A DNA stretch of 62,215 bases, taken from assembly GCA_022824615.1 (NCBI GenBank), contig JAJDZM010000274.1:1-62215 (forward strand). The letters are read 5' to 3'. The number at the start of each line of letters is the position of its first letter. Position 1 is the first letter of the stretch. Positions 6,734 through 29,901 of the stretch are shown here, one piece after another. The notes under the pieces were generated by a model. That model ran no database searches. It saw only the letters and a program-made list of their open reading frames with translations, and was not told where the DNA came from. The position numbers and the translations under genes are program-made. This DNA comes from Candidatus Binatia bacterium. Lineage in GTDB: Bacteria; Desulfobacterota; Binatia; Bin18.

Positions 6734-7220
6734 ACTGCTGGCGCACTGCACCCAGCTCGTGTTTGACGAAGCTGCCTGTCTGGATCAGCGCCGCTGGGCG
6801 GACTGGCTGGCCCTGTATGCCGATGATGCGGAATACTGGGTGCCGGCCTGGACCGATGAGGGCCGGCCCACGAACGATCCGCAGACCGAGCTGTCGCTGA
6901 TCTACTACAACAGCAAGGCCGGCCTGGAAGACCGGGTCTGGCGGATCGAATCGGGCCTGTCACCGGCCTCTCAGCCCCTGGACCGGACCTGCCACCTGAT
7001 TACCAATATCCGTCTCACGAACGAGGATGCTGACCAACCGGTCGTGGCGGCGCACTGGCAGGTGAATGCCTACAAGCCTGGGAAACAGCGGTCGTTTCTC
7101 TATTACGGCTTTTATGAGCACCTGCTCCGGCGGACGCCGGCGGGCTATCGGATCGCCAAAAAGAAGACTACCCTCTTGAACGATGTTATTGAGGGTGTGT
7201 TGGATATCTACCATATATAA
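6723..7220 (+). CDS. Ring-hydroxylating oxygenase beta subunit
   Basis: EAACLDQRRWADWLALY..DAEYWVP..LEDRVWRI; overlaps end of alpha subunit. Confidence 0.9.
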   Translation: MTAELLAHCTQLVFDEAACLDQRRWADWLALYADDAEYWVPAWTDEGRPTNDPQTELSLIYYNSKAGLEDRVWRIESGLSPASQPLDRTCHLITNIRLTNEDADQPVVAAHWQVNAYKPGKQRSFLYYGFYEHLLRRTPAGYRIAKKKTTLLNDVIEGVLDIYHI

Positions 7221-7245
7221 ACAAGTCCACTGACGAGAGAGCGCT

Positions 7246-8442
7246 ATGGAGTCTGTTGATCTGTCGTACGGCCGTTCGTTTGCCAACGGGTTTCCGCACG
7301 AATTTTTTTCTCATCTGCGGCGTGAGGCCCCGGTCTGGTGGCATGCGCCGACCGAGCACACGCCGGGCGGCGAGGGGTTCTGGGTGGTGAGTCGCTACGC
7401 TGACGTGGTGAATGTTTTTAAGGATGCTGAGACATTTTCTTCCGAGCTGGGAGGGACCCAGATTTTCGATGGCAGAGGAGCCGGCTATCAACTGAACCAG
7501 ACGGATGACCCCAAGCATCGCCGCCTGCGCGACTTGGTCAATACCGGTTTCCTGCCGCGCATGATCGGTCGTCTGGAAGCCCAGCTCAGGGAACGGACCC
7601 GCCATATTCTTGACGGCATCTCGCCCAGCAAGCCGTTTGATTTCGTGCCGACCGTGGCACGTGAACTGCCCCTGCAGGCTATCTGCATTATTCTCGGGAT
7701 TCCGCAGGAAGATCGAGAAGAGCTGGGGCATATTGTTGACCTAGCCATCGGTGCCGGGACAGGCGAAGCCCTGGCCCTGGAGCATATCAAACGTCTGGGC
7801 GCGTACGCGGATAGGATCGTGGAGCAGAAACGCCGCGCACCCGCGGACGACATTCTGTCCGTGATTGTTCACGCCCGGTTAGAGGACGGCTCCCCGCAGC
7901 TCGACAATCGTGAGTTGCGCGCCTTCTTTGCCTTGCTCTTTCCGGCCGGGGCCGAGACCACGCGCAGCTCCATTGCCGGCGGTCTGGTGGCGCTGATCGA
8001 AAACCCGTACGAACTGGAACGTCTACGTACCGACCCTGGGCTGATGAAGAGCGCGGTCGAAGAGATCGTGCGCTGGACCTCGCCGTCCGTGTACAAACGT
8101 CGGACGACGACGCGCGATGTCGAGCTGCGCGGGCAGCGCATTCGCCAGAGACAAAAAGTCACCATCTGGGAGATGTCGGCCAACCGGGACGAGGAGGAGT
8201 TCTCAGACCCGTTCCGGTTCGATATCGGGCGCAGCCCCAATTTTCATATTGGCTTTGGTCTCGGTACCCACTTCTGTTTGGGGGCCAATCTTGCGCGGCT
8301 TGAAATCCGGGTGGTGTTCGAGGAACTCCTGGCCCGCTACGCAGACTTCGAGATCGTCGGTGATCTCGAATGGACGAATAACAATCGTCTGGTCGGTCTG
8401 ACCCGCCTGCCACTCAGAGTGACACCCAGGGCAGCTTCCTGA
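7246..8442 (+). CDS. Cytochrome P450
   Basis: I-helix AGAETT, ExxR (EEIVR), heme motif FGLGTHFCLG. Confidence 0.95.
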   Translation: MESVDLSYGRSFANGFPHEFFSHLRREAPVWWHAPTEHTPGGEGFWVVSRYADVVNVFKDAETFSSELGGTQIFDGRGAGYQLNQTDDPKHRRLRDLVNTGFLPRMIGRLEAQLRERTRHILDGISPSKPFDFVPTVARELPLQAICIILGIPQEDREELGHIVDLAIGAGTGEALALEHIKRLGAYADRIVEQKRRAPADDILSVIVHARLEDGSPQLDNRELRAFFALLFPAGAETTRSSIAGGLVALIENPYELERLRTDPGLMKSAVEEIVRWTSPSVYKRRTTTRDVELRGQRIRQRQKVTIWEMSANRDEEEFSDPFRFDIGRSPNFHIGFGLGTHFCLGANLARLEIRVVFEELLARYADFEIVGDLEWTNNNRLVGLTRLPLRVTPRAAS

Positions 8443-8487
8443 TCCGGCCCTATCCAAATCGGACCTGTAATATGGAAGGAGGGAAGA

Positions 8488-9630
8488 ATGAAGAAAGTTC
8501 TGACCGGGGTGCGGTACATTATCCTGACGGCGATTCTGAGTCTGGGTGTCTTCGGAACAACGGTGTTCGCGGACGAAGAAGTCAAGAACTTGATGGAGCG
8601 CTTAATGGCGGCTCCAACGATTGAGGCCGCTGAGGGATTTGGTGTCGAGATGCTGATTCCCCCGGGCGAATTCTATGACCCGCTCTGGCTCCACGCACAA
8701 GGCGATGCCATTTGGCTTAATGACGATGGTGGCGAGGAAGGTGAAAAAGGGAGCAAGATTGTTTCGATCAATCCGGACGGTCACATAGCCGACCTGGTCG
8801 GGTTGGGTCGTCTCCTGCCAGTCACCGGTTATGACGTCGCGCCATCCAGCTTTGGTGAGTTCGCCGGGCATATTTACTCCATTGCGCAGGCAAGAGTAGC
8901 GGCACCGGGCGCAACCGCCAACCATGTGATTCAGCGGGTTGATCCGAACTCACAAGACGAAGCCAGCGTGGTGTGTACTCTCACGGAAACGGGCAACACC
9001 AATGCCGGAGTGAGCGGTTTTGGTGTGGATGCCCGATTCGGTCCGGACGGCAGCGCGTTCGCCGACCGTTTTTTTGCTATTACCGCATTCAATAATTCCA
9101 TCTACCAGGTATCGGCCGATAACACCTGTTCTCCATTCGTCACCTTTGATGGGACGATCAACGGTGCGCCGATGGGTTTAGCCTTTTCCGCAGACGGTCA
9201 GTCCATGTTCGTCACTCTCAAGACGGGTGGTATCCTGGAGCCGCCCTCTGAAGGGAGTGGCATGGTCGTGCGAGTATCGTCGGATGGCGCGGTTGATGAG
9301 AAGCCCGTTGTGGAGGGGCTCTTTCAGCCTATGGGGATTATGCGTGCGCCGGGAGGTTTCGGTACGTATGGCGGCCAGCTCTTTATCACCGATGTGGCCA
9401 ACATCCAAGCGCCTGTACCGATGACGCAAGCGCTCAAAACAGACGGCAGGGTACTCCGCGCTGGCGAGGACGGCAAGTTGCACCTCGTCGCCAGCGGCTT
9501 TATGAATCCGGTTGGCATGTTGGTGGTCAATGGCGCGCTGTGGGTGACGGATATCAACGGTGACTTTATCGCGGGAAAGCGTGAGCTGCCCGACGGATTT
9601 ATTGTCAAACTGACGCCAACAGGCAAGTAA
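8488..9630 (+). CDS. Secreted beta-propeller-like hypothetical protein; paralog of 47587-48711
   Basis: Signal peptide ending VFA; repeated PxGL/IAF blades; conserved C-terminus DINGDFIAGKRELP shared with paralog. Confidence 0.7.
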   Translation: MKKVLTGVRYIILTAILSLGVFGTTVFADEEVKNLMERLMAAPTIEAAEGFGVEMLIPPGEFYDPLWLHAQGDAIWLNDDGGEEGEKGSKIVSINPDGHIADLVGLGRLLPVTGYDVAPSSFGEFAGHIYSIAQARVAAPGATANHVIQRVDPNSQDEASVVCTLTETGNTNAGVSGFGVDARFGPDGSAFADRFFAITAFNNSIYQVSADNTCSPFVTFDGTINGAPMGLAFSADGQSMFVTLKTGGILEPPSEGSGMVVRVSSDGAVDEKPVVEGLFQPMGIMRAPGGFGTYGGQLFITDVANIQAPVPMTQALKTDGRVLRAGEDGKLHLVASGFMNPVGMLVVNGALWVTDINGDFIAGKRELPDGFIVKLTPTGK

Positions 9631-24845: not shown

Positions 24846-25160
24846 GCCGCTTCGTCAGCAGGCCATTTACACTGTCTTGATTGCATCGCAATCGCTGCGT
24901 AAACTGGGCTCCCGGACGAACGGAGGGCATGATTACGGCGAGCATCACGGTCCGCAATCTCGACGACAATGTGAAAACCCGGCTGCGCGTGCGGGCGGCG
25001 GACAATGGCCGCTCCATGGAAGAGGAGGCGCGGCTGATCCTGCGCGATGCCGTCGGGTGCAAGCCGAGTTCTCGGAACCTCGCGAGCATCATCCGCGCGC
25101 ACTTCGGGCCGGCCAACGGCGTGGACCTGGAGTTGCCGCTTCGTCATCAGGCCATTTGCA
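24846..25160. repeat. 26-bp imperfect direct repeats (24846-24871, 25135-25160) bracketing a truncated antitoxin gene
   Basis: GCCGCTTCGTCA(G/T)CAGGCCATTT(A/G)CA; second copy contains the stop of 25147-25527. Confidence 0.85.
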
Positions 25161-25165
25161 GATGA
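24929..25165 (+). pseudogene. FitA/Arc-like ribbon-helix-helix antitoxin, C-terminally truncated, PIN toxin absent
   Basis: ASITVRNLDDNVKTRLRVRAADNGRSMEEEARLIL...GVDLELP then runs into the direct repeat. Confidence 0.75.
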
Positions 25166-25527
25166 TCTTGCCCGCCGCAGGGATCAATTTCGACTGTGAT
25201 CTTGCGGACCCTGACCTGGGGAATCTTGCGGCGACCATTGCCGGGCTTCATGGTGACAAGCCCTGCCGCCTCCAACTTGGCTAACGTGCGGCTAAGATTG
25301 GGCTGGGCGCGCCCGGTCCATTCCCTCAGTTCGGTCATGGACTCGGGTTTGCGGTCACGGATAAGTGACAGCAGCCGGCGGTTCTCCGGGGTGAGCAAAC
25401 GCATCAGCGCCTTGACGGAATTGAAGCTGGGTCGTGCCGCGTCCGCAGGAACCGGTTTCTGCCCGCGTGCCACGGCCTTCATCTCGTCACGCAACTCGCG
25501 CAGGTTCTGAATCCTGTAGGTCGTCAT
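25147..25527 (-). CDS. Winged-HTH DNA-binding protein (HVO_A0114-like), putative antitoxin
   Basis: LLTPENRRLLSLIRDRKPESMTELREWTGRAQPNLSRTLAKLEAAGLV; overlaps upstream gene by 4 nt. Confidence 0.8.
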   Translation of the reverse strand: MTTYRIQNLRELRDEMKAVARGQKPVPADAARPSFNSVKALMRLLTPENRRLLSLIRDRKPESMTELREWTGRAQPNLSRTLAKLEAAGLVTMKPGNGRRKIPQVRVRKITVEIDPCGGQDHLQMA

Positions 25528-25928
25528 GAGTCTTTCTCCTCTCCGGCAATGACTGTCGTTCCCACACCATGCTCCTGTAACACTCGCTCGACTTCGGAAA
25601 AGAAATCGTCAAGGAAGGTTTCCACATTGACGAACTGATAGGGGCGGCCCGAGTCGCTCTCTGTACGATGCCAATGGTCATAGATGTGTGAGCGTTCTTT
25701 GTAGCGTGAACCCGTCGCTGCCACGCTGTGGGCGTTGTCAAAACCGATAAGCCGCTTGCCCGAGGGCGCGTGCAAAGTGAAGGAATAAGACAGGCCATGC
25801 GGGCGCTCTTCGCTCGACTTGGCGCGCTTGATCTCGAATTTGATCCAGTAGCCTTCTTCAAGGTAGTGGATGCGTCCGTCGAAAGACAGGAGGAATTCGA
25901 GCGGATATTCAGGGATTGATTTGTCCAT
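25524..25928 (-). CDS. DUF6516/TumE-like putative toxin
   Basis: RPHGLSYSFTLH..GKRLIGFDNAH...YDHWHR...PYQF..ETFLDDF. Confidence 0.75.
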   Translation of the reverse strand: MDKSIPEYPLEFLLSFDGRIHYLEEGYWIKFEIKRAKSSEERPHGLSYSFTLHAPSGKRLIGFDNAHSVAATGSRYKERSHIYDHWHRTESDSGRPYQFVNVETFLDDFFSEVERVLQEHGVGTTVIAGEEKDS

Positions 25929-26054
25929 ATCATATCCAGAGAAGATATTACTCCTGCAATTTCAATTGTCAACAATCTCATGTGTCCGCTATGATAGTTT
26001 CTCTATTTTTCTACCATCGATTCAAAAAAATCTACGGATTATTAGAGATCTTTT

Positions 26055-26080
26055 TGAATAAAATCGATATAGATTCGTTT
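26055..26080 (+). promoter_or_regulatory. Putative ECF-sigma promoter upstream of peptide gene 1
   Basis: TGAAT-N16-CGTT, same geometry as the motif at 26712-26736. Confidence 0.6.
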
Positions 26081-26200
26081 ACATTTATGTAAGTAAATAT
26101 CTCTCCGTATGCGGAGAGAGGAGGTGAGGCCATGTAATAGGCGACTTAAAGGCAAAGAACGTTACAGTATTGCTAATTACGATAAGGGAGGAAATCTGAG

Positions 26201-26581
26201 ATGAAAACGCTTACCGCAGCAGGCCCGTTGAAGAAAATGACAAAGGGCCTCCTCGTCCTCTTGGTAGTGAAGGCAACGTTGCTAACCGTCCTGTCAGTCC
26301 TCGCCGGATATGTCTTTGCATCCAACCCTCCTCCTCTGACAACGACAGATACATTGTCTGTCGCTCCTACTCCTATTCTGGAAGAACGCCAGACCACTCC
26401 ATCCCCCACCGACCCCAGCCCTCCTTCTGTTTTAGAAGGCTGGGCCGCAGAACAGTCCTGTGAAGAAATGGGTACTGATCTGGCCGGGATAGACTGCACG
26501 GCCTGTATCTTCGTATGTATGTTCGCCGAGCCCTTGAGCTGTTCAATCTGCATCACCGCGTGCCTTGCGAGCCCGATTTAA
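26201..26581 (+). CDS. Secreted Pro-rich/Cys-rich peptide precursor 1 (unknown family)
   Basis: SD GGAGG; hydrophobic signal ending VFA; Pro/Thr linker; C-terminus GWAA..C..TDL..DCTACIFVCMFAEPLSCSICITACLASPI; paralog at 27272. Confidence 0.8.
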   Translation: MKTLTAAGPLKKMTKGLLVLLVVKATLLTVLSVLAGYVFASNPPPLTTTDTLSVAPTPILEERQTTPSPTDPSPPSVLEGWAAEQSCEEMGTDLAGIDCTACIFVCMFAEPLSCSICITACLASPI

Positions 26582-26588
26582 TAACACC

Positions 26589-26610
26589 CAGGCAGGTGAA
26601 TGCCTGCCTG
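26589..26610. repeat. 22-bp hairpin after peptide gene 1
   Basis: CAGGCAGG-TGAATG-CCTGCCTG; inverted copy at 27644-27665. Confidence 0.8.
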
Positions 26611-26680
26611 TAAAATCAAATGGGGGAGAGCTGCCAGACACTACCCCATCTTCCTGAGTGAGACGGTCTTGCAGACGAAA

Positions 26681-26712
26681 TAGATTTTTCTGTAGATTTT
26701 TCTGTAGATTTT
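26681..26712 (+). repeat. 12-bp tandem repeat (TAGATTTTTCTG x2.7) abutting the -35 of the ECF gene
   Basis: TAGATTTTTCTG TAGATTTTTCTG TAGATTTT. Confidence 0.85.
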
Positions 26713-26736
26713 GAATAAAAATGCATTGATTTCGTT
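26712..26736 (+). promoter_or_regulatory. Putative ECF-sigma promoter of the sigma gene itself (likely leaderless mRNA)
   Basis: TGAAT-N16-CGTT ending 8 nt before ATG 26745; no SD. Confidence 0.6.
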
Positions 26737-26744
26737 GTACAGAT

Positions 26745-27257
26745 ATGGGAAAGGTCGAAATCACAGAGTCCGACGTGGAGTTTATGAAATCTATCGCTGG
26801 GCCTCTCGCCCGAGATGACGACCTGGCAAGGGAGGCAGTCCAGGAGGCCGCTGTAGCGATATCTCGCGGCCAATACGAAGAGCGGGGCCAACATCGTGCG
26901 TGGGTACGCAGAGTCGTTAAAAACAAAACGATTGACGGACAGCGCCAGCGTAGCCGACGATCAATGTTCGAGCGACATCAGTCAAGGGGAGATGACGATG
27001 ACGATTGGATTGAGAGTATTCCAGATACGCGGGGCCTTGATCCTTCAGATCTCATTGCCGAGCGCGAACTTGGACAGCAGATCCGGGCCGCTATTGACGA
27101 ACTGACACCGCCCCATAAAGCGGTCATATTACTACGGGCGGTCGAGGGGCTGTCCTATGAAGAGATCAGTCAGGTGTTGCAGTGTTCCAGGGGAACGGTG
27201 ATGAGCCGACTGCATTATGCAAGGAAAGCACTTCGAATATCTCTCAACACGGAATGA
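26745..27257 (+). CDS. ECF (group 4) RNA polymerase sigma-70 factor
   Basis: Region 2 LAREAVQEA..AWVRRVVKNKTID; region 4 IDELTPPHKAVILLRAVEGLSYEEISQVLQCSRGTVMSRLHYARKAL. Confidence 0.92.
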   Translation: MGKVEITESDVEFMKSIAGPLARDDDLAREAVQEAAVAISRGQYEERGQHRAWVRRVVKNKTIDGQRQRSRRSMFERHQSRGDDDDDWIESIPDTRGLDPSDLIAERELGQQIRAAIDELTPPHKAVILLRAVEGLSYEEISQVLQCSRGTVMSRLHYARKALRISLNTE

Positions 27258-27271
27258 ACGGGTAGGAGGCA

Positions 27272-27634
27272 ATGATCATGTCCGATGTAATATTCTTGAA
27301 GAAGGCGACACCAATCAGCATCCTTTCAATCGCGGCTGGATTAGCGTTCGCCCACGCAGATGTATATAAAGAGGCTCCGCCCTTATTGTCGTCTATTGCT
27401 TTTCCTCCCAATGGGAGGAGCCCTAGTCCACCATCTCCTACTAATCCGGCTCCGCCCATCCTACCCCTGTACGGCCAAGGCTGGGCCGCTCAGCTTTGCA
27501 ACAAAGAGCACACGGATCTCGGTGATGATGAGACCGTCGGCCTAGACTGTGCCGCATGTGCGTTAGTGTGCCTTATCGGGGGGCCGATTAGCTGCTCGAT
27601 TTTCCTGACGGCTTGCCTTGCGAGCCCTGTCTGA
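27272..27634 (+). CDS. Secreted Pro-rich/Cys-rich peptide precursor 2 (paralog of 26201)
   Basis: SD GGAGG; signal ending AHA; Pro-rich linker; GWAAQLC..TDL..DCAACALVCLIGGPISCSIFLTACLASPV. Confidence 0.8.
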   Translation: MIMSDVIFLKKATPISILSIAAGLAFAHADVYKEAPPLLSSIAFPPNGRSPSPPSPTNPAPPILPLYGQGWAAQLCNKEHTDLGDDETVGLDCAACALVCLIGGPISCSIFLTACLASPV

Positions 27635-27643
27635 TGTCGGTCA

Positions 27644-27665
27644 CAGGCAGGCATTCGCCTGCCTG
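27644..27665. repeat. 22-bp hairpin after peptide gene 2 (inverted relative to 26589)
   Basis: CAGGCAGG-CATTCG-CCTGCCTG. Confidence 0.8.
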
Positions 27666-27689
27666 ATTAAAGATAGAGGAGATAATGGA

Positions 27690-28742
27690 ATGAATGACAA
27701 AGTTGATCTCGAAGAAAAAGCGGCGAAGTGTCTGAGAAACAAAAGGCTAATCGGCGAGACCAGAGCTCGTATTGGTCAAGACGCCTTGAATCCGTCCCGT
27801 CTGGCCCACTGGCGAAGAGTCGGCTTCCCGACCCTTTTCCTTGAAGGATTCACGTTGAGTGAGTGCGCTAATATGGACACTCACACAGGAGCAAAGCGTA
27901 ATCGGGTCGCCGCCGAACGACTCTTTCAAGTCTTTGCCGTAGACGAGCCCCCACCAAATCCATCGGGCAATCTAGATTGTCTTGGTGTGCGTCTGTGGCA
28001 AGGAGTTCAAGCCAATCAATACGACCGCAAAGCCTACTTGAGAGTTAGAACATGGTTTGATGGTGACTTTCCCACCGACCTAAATGATAAGCGCTGGCCA
28101 CGAGACTTAATTACTAATCAGCGAATCGGTAGGAAGGAGGAGGATATTGAGAAAAATGGATGTATCCTAACCATCGATAAGGCCTCAAACGCACACTCCG
28201 CCATTCTGACATGGGAGATTCCTCCAGATCAGCAGACCGAATACGGTTTCTCTCTGGAAATGTCGAGGACAATCTCGCCTTACAGGAATCACCATCCATA
28301 TGATTTTCTTGGCGGGACGCCCGCGATACCGACCCGCTCCCTTGTGACGCTGGTCATCCTACCTAGCGAGATACTTGAGCAGGGAGGGAGTCTTTTAGAT
28401 AGGGAGCCGCAATTCTTTGGGGTCTCCATGGAAGGTGACTTTCTCAAAACAGTAGATCAGTTCCTCAGCAAGAAGTTATTACCACGAGAGGAGGATTATC
28501 TCATAGACCGGCAAGGGCCTGTCAGACTGTGGCACGATACGGATATCAGACTCCCCAAAAGGATTGAGGAGGAATTTATAGCTGCCGGGGTTATCACAGA
28601 GGACGAGGTAAGAGCACGTCTGAAACGGAAACACGTTATATACGTAGCGGAGGCCGCTGAGCCGGAGGTGCATCGGAATTACTGCCTATGTTTCCGGCTT
28701 CGCGACAAACCAAAACCAACTGGAGATATAGTAGATGCGTGA
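27690..28742 (+). CDS. Hypothetical cytoplasmic protein (~350 aa), no recognisable family
   Basis: ATG 27690 after GAGGAG; overlaps next gene; beta-rich-looking C-terminal half. Confidence 0.7.
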   Translation: MNDKVDLEEKAAKCLRNKRLIGETRARIGQDALNPSRLAHWRRVGFPTLFLEGFTLSECANMDTHTGAKRNRVAAERLFQVFAVDEPPPNPSGNLDCLGVRLWQGVQANQYDRKAYLRVRTWFDGDFPTDLNDKRWPRDLITNQRIGRKEEDIEKNGCILTIDKASNAHSAILTWEIPPDQQTEYGFSLEMSRTISPYRNHHPYDFLGGTPAIPTRSLVTLVILPSEILEQGGSLLDREPQFFGVSMEGDFLKTVDQFLSKKLLPREEDYLIDRQGPVRLWHDTDIRLPKRIEEEFIAAGVITEDEVRARLKRKHVIYVAEAAEPEVHRNYCLCFRLRDKPKPTGDIVDA

Positions 28743-29733
28743 CTTTTATTTAGGCGTCCTCATGGCCTTATCGATAGCGCTGCTTACGAATTTTTTGAAG
28801 CTATCAGAGAGCTTAAACGGACAAAATCCTAGTGGAGAAGTTCAATCCGCTTTGTTTTTTTTCTTTGCTGCCGGAGCCGTGAGTTTAGGTCTCGCCAGAC
28901 TTGGAATCTCGATTGGTATCCAGACGTACAAAAAAAGGGGAGTGACGAGAATTGCTAGTCCGGGAGGGACGGTGTCTCCTGGGTTGCTCTTGATGTTGGT
29001 AATGTTGGCGGTGGCTGGGGTACTCGCTTCTGGATTTTTTATTGCGATCCTCGAACTCGGTCCCAGTGTGGCCGAGACTCTGGAATCTGGCCTCGCTCCG
29101 TTATTCTACCTAATCTTCTACTTGGCAGCCAGACGGCGTTCCGCTGAAATTGAGCAGGTAGTTCCTAATACAGGTCGTATTTCTTGGGGTGCTCTGCTAA
29201 TTGCTTGTGGCCTGATTTGCCTAGGGCTATCGATTAATCTGAACAAAATTCAGGACAATCTTCCTATCCTGGAGGCGACACTCAAAAACGTTATACCCGT
29301 GGCTTTCGGGGTCGTGGGAGCCGTAGGCTCAGCGTTGTCAGTCCTGTTAACTCGATCCATAAAGAAAGAGCACGACGTGCCAATGCCCCTCTTGGTGCTA
29401 CTCCGCTATAGCGGAGTAGCTGTAGTCTATTTTCTGCTGACCGGTTCCTTTGAAGACGTTACCAAGGAATCTGCGCTACTAGCTTTCTGCAGTGGTGCCG
29501 TGTTGATACACCTATTGTTCTTCTTTATGGTAAACATCACCGGCGACCTCGTTGCAGCCGCCTCGCTAGGGCTGGCCCCGGTGCTGACACTTGCCATTGA
29601 ATTTCTTCTGTCCTCTCACGCTAATATGGAGTCCAAGATACCGTTCGAGGCTCCTGGTGTTTGGGTGGGTGTCGTCATTGCGATGATCGGTATTTTCCTC
29701 TTGGAAAAGGAGAGCGACAGAATATCCCGTTAA
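28735..29733 (+). CDS. DMT/EamA-like multi-pass membrane transporter
   Basis: ~10 hydrophobic segments in two halves; F..AI..LGPSVA..L...APLF and A..SLGLAPVLTL..EF..GV.IAMIGI motifs. Confidence 0.7.
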   Translation: MRDFYLGVLMALSIALLTNFLKLSESLNGQNPSGEVQSALFFFFAAGAVSLGLARLGISIGIQTYKKRGVTRIASPGGTVSPGLLLMLVMLAVAGVLASGFFIAILELGPSVAETLESGLAPLFYLIFYLAARRRSAEIEQVVPNTGRISWGALLIACGLICLGLSINLNKIQDNLPILEATLKNVIPVAFGVVGAVGSALSVLLTRSIKKEHDVPMPLLVLLRYSGVAVVYFLLTGSFEDVTKESALLAFCSGAVLIHLLFFFMVNITGDLVAAASLGLAPVLTLAIEFLLSSHANMESKIPFEAPGVWVGVVIAMIGIFLLEKESDRISR

Positions 29734-29901
29734 CCAGGGAGATTCTGCTGAACTTCGTACCTGGAGCTGATTTGAGTACAACAATCTTTTCCGTACCTTG
29801 TGTCACGGTGGGATGAGTAAATGCAGTCACCCAGGCATTCTTTGAGTCAACACAAGGAGCTTGAGTCGCGCCGGTTTTGCGGGCGTCCTCATCGCTGCCA
29901 G

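Follow-up and report, generated by a model that had tools for sequence, protein, structure and literature searches.

The window analyzed here, that is, the whole stretch of 62,215 nucleotides of contig JAJDZM010000274.1 from the uncultured bacterium Candidatus Binatia, carries a small island in which a gene for an extracytoplasmic function (ECF) sigma factor stands between two genes for Cys-rich peptides with predicted export signals, pep1 and pep2. Genes for a 350-amino-acid (350-aa) cytoplasmic protein and for a polytopic membrane protein with about 10 hydrophobic, putatively transmembrane (TM) segments, hereafter the 10-TM protein, complete the island. Its anatomy and regulatory wiring are reasonably well supported; the function of the peptides we infer.

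Gene content and insertion site

The five intact open reading frames (ORFs) share the + strand and are all contained in a low-GC, species-specific insertion of 3.94 kb (window 25958..29900, no strand assigned), the genes for the 350-aa and 10-TM proteins overlapping by 8 nt. GC content is 0.46-0.53 inside the block versus 0.57-0.63 in the flanks, and GC content at third codon positions (GC3) is 0.51-0.57 in the island versus 0.62-0.74 in flanking genes. ORFs, GC and GC3 therefore agree with the initial annotation, which had described five co-oriented genes in an AT-richer block. The reading frames are intact in all five genes, and Shine-Dalgarno sites are good for all except the sigma gene. 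An Rfam scan of the island returned nothing. Likewise, Pfam and NCBIfam searches with the five proteins revealed no anti-sigma, radical S-adenosylmethionine (SAM), glycosyltransferase or peptidase-ATP-binding cassette (ABC) domain, in keeping with the earlier failure to recognize any canonical member of these classes, nor a LanB/C/M/KC/L enzyme, a radical SAM maturase or a metal efflux/resistance gene. No island protein matched an anti-sigma family in these two collections, even when Pfam was searched to E <= 10.

The insertion takes the place of a spacer of ~26 bp between genes for a TumE-like toxin and a dioxygenase beta subunit. The empty site is preserved in genome G011, where the toxin and dioxygenase beta-subunit genes are 26 bp apart and both junctions can be aligned. 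A DNA search of 28 genomes/species of the genus found the flanks conserved and positions 25958-29900 unmatched except for 26931-27227, the island being missing from all the other species (27/27). Neither a target-site duplication nor a terminal repeat, integrase or other mobility gene was detected at the island, which was seen on one contig of a metagenome-assembled genome with 89.6% completeness and 4.6% contamination.

To the left of the island lies an accessory hot spot (window 24881-25928) that occurs only in some species of the genus. It comprises a FitA-like ribbon-helix-helix ORF (24881-25165, +), a gene for an HVO_A0114-like winged-helix protein (25147-25527, -) and that of the TumE-like toxin (25524-25928, -). 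G011 has the pair, and genomes G006 and G007 carry part of the hot spot only.

The sigma factor and the promoters of the island

The sigma gene (26745..27257, +) specifies a 170-aa protein made of a divergent sigma2 region (aa 1-63) and a core-like linker and sigma4 region (aa 64-160). The latter corresponds to a 297-bp patch (26931..27227, +) that is the sole stretch of the island with DNA relatives, sharing 92-93% identity with the core ECF sigma genes of all tested species of the genus. When the island and core sigma genes are compared at the nucleotide level, identity reaches 82-98% over residues 64-160 and drops to 27-51%, i.e., background, over residues 1-63 and 161-170; the sigma2 part is thus without relation to the core sigma at the DNA level. 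The recognition helix of sigma4 is the same in both proteins. The patch has 11 private substitutions and lies 7-8% from every core gene, while core genes are 5% apart on average, which dates its branching to about genus depth. An assembly chimera was ruled out as the origin of the patch, given these 11 private differences and the synteny of both island flanks with congeners. Judged by its sequence, then, the island sigma is a natural sigma2/sigma4 chimera whose linker and sigma4 were recently copied from the core ECF sigma of the genus, and this is the most solid new point of our analysis.

Over the whole patch, synonymous divergence (dS) is 0.27 and nonsynonymous divergence (dN) 0.039 (omega ~0.14). 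Its sigma4 half has a dS of 0.48 and a dN of 0.018, and in its linker part dN and dS are about equal (0.062 versus 0.083). The island sigma matches TIGR02937 (76.4 bits, cut-off 42.9), Sigma70_r4_2 (60.7 bits, cut-off 25.7) and Sigma70_ECF (28.5 bits, cut-off 21.1). On Sigma70_r2 the full protein scores 23.5 bits, just below the cut-off of 24, and the N-terminal 64 aa alone score 20.3 bits versus 59 bits for the core sigma. The island sigma2, recognizable as region 2 though weakly, is ~20 aa shorter than that of the core protein and retains the signature D..A.E.VQEA...W..R...N...D..R.

The core ECF sigma has 190 aa and is encoded on contig C246 of the same genome, at a locus conserved across the genus and ordered as sigma gene, gene for a zinc-binding anti-sigma (ZAS)-type protein (about 184-208 aa) and gene for a 162-aa secreted protein without Pfam family. 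This locus (C246:18104-19818, minus strand; equivalent L017:4001-5717) is divergent from an ABC-2 transporter operon. Within it, the sigma gene occupies C246:19246-19818 and the ZAS-type anti-sigma gene C246:18589-19215.

Two ECF-type promoters are predicted within the island. P1 (26052..26079, +; TTTTGAATAAAA-N7-GATTCGTT, in short TGAAT-N16-CGTT) lies ahead of pep1 and P2 (26709..26736, +; TTTTGAATAAAA-N7-GATTTCGTT) ahead of the sigma gene. A loose ECF promoter pattern has two matches in the window versus 0.31 expected, and the extended motif TTTTGAATAAAA-N7-GATT(T)CGTT occurs at P1 and P2 only within the 4.98-Mb genome. P2 ends 8 nt 5' of the sigma ATG, which is not preceded by a Shine-Dalgarno site; the sigma mRNA is therefore probably leaderless. 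The core sigma gene is preceded by GTGCTGAATAGTCATGTCTCCTTTCACGTC (TGAATA-N16-CGTC), which shows no variation among 9 genomes even though the DNA on its 5' side does vary; this is the autoregulated promoter to be expected of an ECF sigma. Island and core promoters have the -35 TGAATA and the -10 CGT in common, the full -10 being CGTT in the former and CGTC in the latter. Since sigma4 reads the -35 element, the core and island sigmas should both recognize P1 and P2. Thus, the island is probably wired into the ECF circuit of its host. Sigma control had been proposed from the start and is borne out by the ECF-type promoters, but the accompanying notion of a self-contained system is not supported, because of the 297-bp core-sigma patch and the presence of the core sigma's -35 in the island promoters.

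Further noncoding elements surround the promoters and the peptide genes. The ~115-nt leader of pep1 contains an 8-bp hairpin (26100..26119, +; TCTCTCCG-TATG-CGGAGAGA) and, around 26133, an ATG-TAA start-stop mini-ORF. A pair of hairpins follows the peptide genes, one 7 nt past the pep1 stop (26589..26610, +; CAGGCAGG-TGAATG-CCTGCCTG; minimum free energy -21.5 kcal/mol, z -2.4) and the other 9 nt past the pep2 stop (27644..27665, +; CAGGCAGG-CATTCG-CCTGCCTG; -25.4 kcal/mol, z -4.2). Their 9-bp stems are identical even though synonymous sites of the adjoining genes are saturated, which argues for selection on these structures. The stems are found at this locus only in the genome, which dismisses a genome-wide repetitive extragenic palindrome (REP)-type repeat, and the lack of a U-tract downstream on the + strand dismisses canonical intrinsic terminators. 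The post-gene hairpins are more likely transcript stabilizers or attenuators than full terminators. Finally, a tandem of two TAGATTTTTCTG copies with a partial third copy (26681..26712, +) abuts the -35 of P2 and could be an UP-like element or activator site; a related sequence, AGATCTTTTTGAAT, stands ahead of the -35 of P1.

The paired peptides and the two downstream proteins

pep1 (26201..26581, +) encodes 126 aa and has a GGGAGG Shine-Dalgarno sequence 9 nt 5' of its start. Its product opens with a Sec-type signal, continues with a Pro-rich linker of 39 aa and closes with a domain of 47 aa that contains 7 Cys. pep2 (27272..27634, +) encodes 120 aa, or 118 aa from a better start at 27278, and therefore begins 15-21 nt past the sigma stop; its product is built alike, the Sec-type signal being followed by a Pro-rich linker of 40 aa and a domain of 51 aa that contains 6 Cys. 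The two proteins align at a BLASTP E value of 8e-18, with 38% identity for the whole alignment and 56% for the C-terminal domain counted from GWAA, so that the claim of paralogous peptides with a conserved Cys C-terminus, including the motif originally written for it, proved accurate. The signals had been called unrelated, which is slightly overstated, as the alignment weakly spans them. In the C-terminal domain (46 aligned codons, Nei-Gojobori), the proportion of synonymous differences (pS) is 0.71 and that of nonsynonymous differences (pN) 0.24, with dN/dS ~0.13, while signal and linker are less constrained (pN = 0.40). The near saturation of synonymous sites between the genes, combined with this low ratio, indicates an old duplication after which both copies were retained as protein. 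On codon evidence, the peptide genes are true old paralogs under purifying selection.

The Cys framework, C-x2-C-x3-C-x7-C-x2-(C/F)-x3-C with one further Cys ahead, includes six conserved Cys, and its positions from C-x2-C onward follow each other in steps of 3, 4, 8, 3 and 4 residues. Numbered from the GWAA glycine, the outer pairs fall at 20/27 and 35/42 in pep1 and at 24/31 and 39/46 in pep2. The Pro-rich linkers contain 10-12 Pro in 39-40 residues and are followed by an acidic stretch. The last 29 residues are 69-76% apolar or small, with Kyte-Doolittle 19-mer values of up to 2.15, and both peptides close with ...CLASPI/V, a terminus devoid of Arg and Lys. In agreement with the earlier assumption of secretion, each protein has a predicted Sec-type signal, that of pep2 being classical and cleavable (16-residue hydrophobic core, AHA|D) and that of pep1 having a longer core, ending VFA|S, that is itself TM-like on the Hessa scale. 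The predicted mature forms are of 86 aa with a net charge of -10 (pep1) and 91 aa with a net charge of -5 (pep2). On the Hessa scale, the most favorable C-terminal windows reach +2.7 to +3.4 kcal/mol (pep1) and about +1.0 kcal/mol (pep2); with positive energies such as these, the segments are not expected to halt translocation in the manner of TM helices.

AlphaFold2 modeling of the domain from the two-sequence alignment, a step the initial annotation had recommended, delivered helices at residues 2-14, 24-34 and 40-48, at low confidence (mean predicted local distance difference test [pLDDT] 59, ~67 over the hairpin part). The Cys of helix 24-34, like those of helix 40-48, span no more than a 60 degree arc in this low-confidence model, at i, i+3 and i+7 on one face; a Foldseek search of the PDB with the same model (pLDDT 59) gave no match. 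Each peptide is thus modeled to end in a very hydrophobic helix-loop-helix, with a conserved acidic stretch N-terminal to the helices.

Relatives of the peptides were sought widely. A word-indexed search of 5.8 billion proteins yielded none, and an HMMER profile search run exhaustively over 1.84 billion cluster representatives, the search recommended for the C-terminal domain, recovered only the two window proteins. Six-frame searches of 60 related genomes produced Pro-rich noise only, viral contigs contained no relatives, and two pattern matches in metagenome contigs were both spurious (a phosphofructokinase and a non-ORF). The peptides were equally unmatched in PDB sequences, Pfam, NCBIfam, PADLOC and PHROGs. 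Database and profile searches being negative, the peptides appear to fit no described family, as had been supposed. A C-terminal sorting signal (PEP-CTERM, LPXTG or GlyGly-CTERM) was considered and discarded, as there is no basic tail and no sortase or exosortase match.

The 350-aa protein (27690..28742, +), to which no family could be assigned, is unmatched in Pfam, NCBIfam, PADLOC, PHROGs and PDB sequences; it retrieved only itself from 5.8 billion proteins and nothing from metagenome contigs, viral contigs, plasmids and 400 genomes of the phylum. Its AlphaFold2 model is unusable (pLDDT 30), and an N-terminal helix-turn-helix-like stretch perceived by eye was dropped for want of profile support. 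The only homolog, 375 aa with 27% identity, came from a genome contig search and is encoded in G010, in an islet of GC 0.47-0.51 (L014, G010:C1:1097000-1113000; 7097-9586) that lies between clpS/clpA and pepN and beside an insertion sequence (IS) transposase. Neighboring genes there specify an unrelated 8-TM protein and an exported protein of 159 aa that has four Cys and a TM segment at its C-terminus; the islet has no sigma gene, no such peptides and no TGAAT...CGT promoter. It resembles the right half of the island in theme, detectable homology being limited to the cytoplasmic protein. This content suggests that the sigma-peptide part and the 350-aa/membrane-protein part of the island may be separable modules. 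It also speaks against the 350-aa protein as the control of the sigma, a role once envisaged for it, since its sole homolog is in an island without sigma or peptides. A peptide in that role is no better placed, as only ~10-16 residues precede the hydrophobic signal core, compared with the N-terminal cytoplasmic domain of ~50-90 aa that class I/ZAS anti-sigmas have ahead of a TM segment; with at most 16 cytoplasmic residues there, the peptides lack an anti-sigma domain. Homologs standing apart from the ECF and EamA genes, named at the outset as evidence against a single system, were found in part, namely, this G010 homolog.

The gene for the 10-TM protein (28735..29733, +; 332 aa) is, as its arrangement reads, translationally coupled to that of the 350-aa protein. 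It had been labeled as a transporter of the drug/metabolite transporter (DMT)/EamA type, with immunity or export as its role. About 10 hydrophobic segments in ~330 aa and a weak GLAP...E...G motif, discerned by eye at the close of each half, recall that family, whose members have two EamA domains and 10 TM helices derived from a 5+5 internal duplication. However, the protein has no Pfam match at E <= 10, including exosortase, rhombosortase and sortase, and is not among the 13 EamA domain matches of its own genome. In HHalign against the EamA profile built from that genome it reached a probability of 0.1%, whereas leave-one-out controls reached 96.5-99.6%, and alignment of one half with the other gave z = 0.3-0.6 against shuffles, i.e., no significant internal repeat. 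On the profile evidence, the DMT/EamA label could not be upheld, nor with it the role of EamA as immunity or export. No relatives of the 10-TM protein were found in 60 relatives of the host, 400 genomes of the phylum, plasmids or the PDB.

Mode of action and relation to known systems

Concerning the capacity of the host to export and oxidize the peptides, the genome encodes a VKOR homolog (C232:10372-10743) as part of an open frame of 492 aa, probably in fusion with a further domain, and no DsbB was found in the genome; extracytoplasmic disulfide formation thus seems to be VKOR-based. Together with an encoded Omp85/BamA, this depicts a cell with an outer membrane that is able to make periplasmic disulfides.

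The reading that we favor, with a probability of roughly 0.35 for the whole of it, is that of a horizontally acquired 3.9-kb accessory block with two ECF-dependent transcription units, whose Sec-exported, disulfide-stapled hairpin peptides act at a membrane with a polytopic partner. Unit 1 would comprise P1, pep1 and its hairpin, and unit 2 would comprise P2, the leaderless sigma gene, pep2 and its hairpin, and the genes for the 350-aa and 10-TM proteins. Envelope stress would free the core ECF sigma from its ZAS anti-sigma, and the core sigma would fire P1 and P2. The island sigma, with the same -35 reading and a different sigma2, would then amplify the response by positive feedback without an anti-sigma of its own. 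Hairpins past the peptide genes may stabilize or attenuate transcripts, such that the peptides would be made in excess over the two downstream proteins. After Sec export, VKOR-dependent periplasmic oxidation would staple the hairpins by nested disulfides (C-X6-C ... C-X6-C, with a middle pair in pep1), and the peptides would act at a membrane, possibly as a pair, with the polytopic protein as partner in immunity, export or reception. Of the functions considered, a bacteriocin-like one is the most likely, though the support for it is weak. A broader version, in which the peptides found a new class of Sec-exported helical hairpins with three disulfides, possibly two-component membrane-active or antimicrobial agents that the 350-aa and 10-TM proteins might mature or handle, and the mobile sigma with its host sigma4 taps or decoys the host sigma/anti-sigma circuit, seems to us unlikely.

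Several observations weigh against the favored reading. The score of sigma2 falls short of the Pfam cut-off (20.3-23.5 bits), so that the island sigma may have little or no activity, and the promoter spacer measures 16 nt in the island versus 17 nt at the core locus. Mature pep1 and pep2 have strongly negative net charges (-10 and -5), unlike most membrane-active bacteriocins, and their very hydrophobic 29-residue C-terminus could simply be retained by the inner membrane. An outer membrane encloses the cell, and none of the island genes codes for a route of export across it or for a processing protease. Charge, outer membrane, missing export and processing genes and extreme C-terminal hydrophobicity all oppose a classical bacteriocin. 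Furthermore, the sole homolog of the 350-aa protein is unlinked to a sigma or to such peptides, and the peptides, the 10-TM protein and the island as a whole are known solely from this contig, which deprives them of comparative support.

The same hydrophobicity sustains the strongest rival, doubtful on balance, that nothing is secreted and the peptides are resident inner-membrane proteins, their signal either cleaved or kept as an anchor and their C-terminus forming a kinked helix or re-entrant hairpin. Small-xxx-small contacts would hold them on the 10-TM protein, and their role would be that of accessory subunits or of thiol-based sensors of the envelope within an ECF stress response. The 69-76% apolar or small C-terminal 29 residues (Kyte-Doolittle to 2.15), the operon shared with a polytopic membrane protein, the lack of an outer-membrane export or processing gene in the island of a cell with an outer membrane and the G010 islet, which also pairs a small exported C-terminal-TM protein with a polytopic one, all fit this arrangement. 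It is at odds with the positive Hessa energies of the C-terminal windows of both peptides, with the central Glu-Pro or Gly-Gly-Pro and the absence of a basic stop-transfer tail, with the split of the segment into two short helices by AlphaFold2 and with the short, classical and cleavable signal of pep2 (that of pep1 being TM-like). ECF sigmas responding to periplasmic metals are known, e.g., CnrH, and the peptides might instead be periplasmic thiol binders of Cu(I), Zn, Cd or Hg that form an ECF-induced Cys-lined bundle, e.g., of pep1 with pep2, from which the 10-TM protein moves the metal or complex. The Cys stripe (i, i+3, i+7) on one helix face, the acidic flanks (domain charge -5 to -6) and a Cys count of 7 versus 6 between paralogs, leaving an unpaired thiol in pep1, could be accounted for in this way. 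We nevertheless hold metal binding to be quite improbable, given that neither Csp/DUF326 nor any other metal-binding family is matched at E <= 10, the helices are only 9-11 residues long, their non-Cys faces are almost purely hydrophobic, unlike those of soluble metal-storage bundles, and the island has no metal efflux/resistance gene.

Two further explanations carry still lower odds. The island could be a decaying or silent remnant in which a truncated, divergent sigma2 disables the sigma and the orphan ORFs, brought in by a transfer long ago, no longer have a role, as would befit the sub-threshold Sigma70_r2 score, the ~20 aa missing from sigma2 with respect to the core protein, the near equality of dN and dS in the linker part of the patch and the presence of the island on a single contig in all collections searched. 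Decay is hard to reconcile with strong purifying selection on both peptide domains and on sigma4 (dN 0.018 versus dS 0.48), with five intact frames and good ribosome sites, and with hairpins and promoters conserved between the duplicated units despite saturated dS, and we rate it as a slim chance. Slimmer yet is that the peptides are chaplin- or hydrophobin-like self-assembling coat proteins or that pep2 is an unconventional extracytoplasmic regulator of the sigma. The chaplins transcribed by BldN are similar in kind (PMC6101532), and pep2, 15-21 nt past the sigma stop, occupies the position of an anti-sigma gene; neither a chaplin nor an anti-sigma family is matched, though, the at most 16 residues before the signal core leave no cytoplasmic anti-sigma domain, and the outer membrane is present with no secretion route in the island.

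Should the hairpin peptides of the favored reading be active, they would establish a new peptide family, hydrophobic hairpins stapled by disulfides, in an uncultured lineage that is rich in catabolic genes and has almost no characterized secreted products. The significance of this is limited by the single metagenomic contig and by the lack of relatives for three of the five proteins.

Among described families, the Csp/DUF326 proteins share with the peptides only the i, i+3, i+7 Cys stripe; they are four-helix bundles of ~120 aa, whereas the island domain has 47-51 aa and two short Cys-bearing helices, and no Pfam match of the peptides to this or any metal-binding family was obtained at E <= 10. 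Similarly, no zf-HC2 or RskA-type match relates the peptides to ZAS/class I anti-sigmas, and the chaplin domain profile of Pfam does not match them. A resemblance to glycocins had been noted in the C-X6-C / loop / C-X6-C layout. The layout holds: like glycocins (sublancin, glycocin F, thermoglycocin; PMC12457901), the peptides combine a helix-loop-helix, in their case a modeled one, with a C-X6-C ... C-X6-C framework that could accommodate two nested disulfides. The third Cys pair of pep1 has a parallel in three-disulfide glycocins. However, in glycocin clusters a glycosyltransferase modifies Ser, Thr or Cys and a C39 peptidase-containing ABC transporter (PCAT) removes the leader (PMC12457901), and the island proteins contain neither a glycosyltransferase nor an ABC/C39 domain. 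Moreover, in place of a double-Gly-type leader the island peptides have a Sec signal followed by a Pro-rich linker; their hydrophobicity is far greater, they are anionic, and they lack sequence similarity to glycocins.

By analogy, the closest known systems would be cluster-situated ECF sigmas that drive genes for peptides or hydrophobic proteins. MibX/MibW of the microbisporicin cluster exemplifies an ECF sigma driving peptide genes (PMC4973701), and in BldN/RsbN the ECF sigma BldN transcribes the chaplins, which are small, hydrophobic, Cys-containing and Sec-exported paralogs (PMC6101532). Sigma-AntA is a cluster-situated orphan ECF without anti-sigma (PMC3933326), a situation akin to that of the island sigma, which has no adjacent cognate anti-sigma; such a neighbor is the rule for ECF sigmas, though not a universal one. 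The likeness to these systems lies in a sigma placed inside a small accessory cluster, probably autoregulating, whose products are small exported peptides or proteins. Unlike MibX, BldN and sigma-AntA, the island sigma is a sigma2/sigma4 chimera with the host core sigma, and its host is an uncultured outer-membrane bacterium, not an actinomycete; its cargo bears none of the signatures of lanthipeptides, chaplins or other known families.

Whatever the peptides do, the sigma chimera provides a clean natural case of modular sigma2/sigma4 exchange. Rhodius and colleagues reportedly engineered, in 2013, ECF sigmas joining the sigma2 of one ECF to the sigma4 of another. Both there and here, sigma2 and sigma4 of different origin meet at the linker. 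The expectation for such chimeras is a -35 reading from one parent and a -10 reading from the other, and the island promoters pair the core-type TGAATA with CGTT, a slightly different -10. The specificity code of ECF sigmas is described in PMC7776599. The island chimera differs from the engineered ones in being natural, in having arisen as a 297-bp conversion patch and in its unusually divergent sigma2. A mobile element appears to have copied the -35-reading, anti-sigma-binding domain of its host, and its promoters carry the matching -35. If so, an island could evolve a connection to a resident stress circuit in this simple way, and the chimera would be a natural counterpart of engineered chimeric ECF switches.

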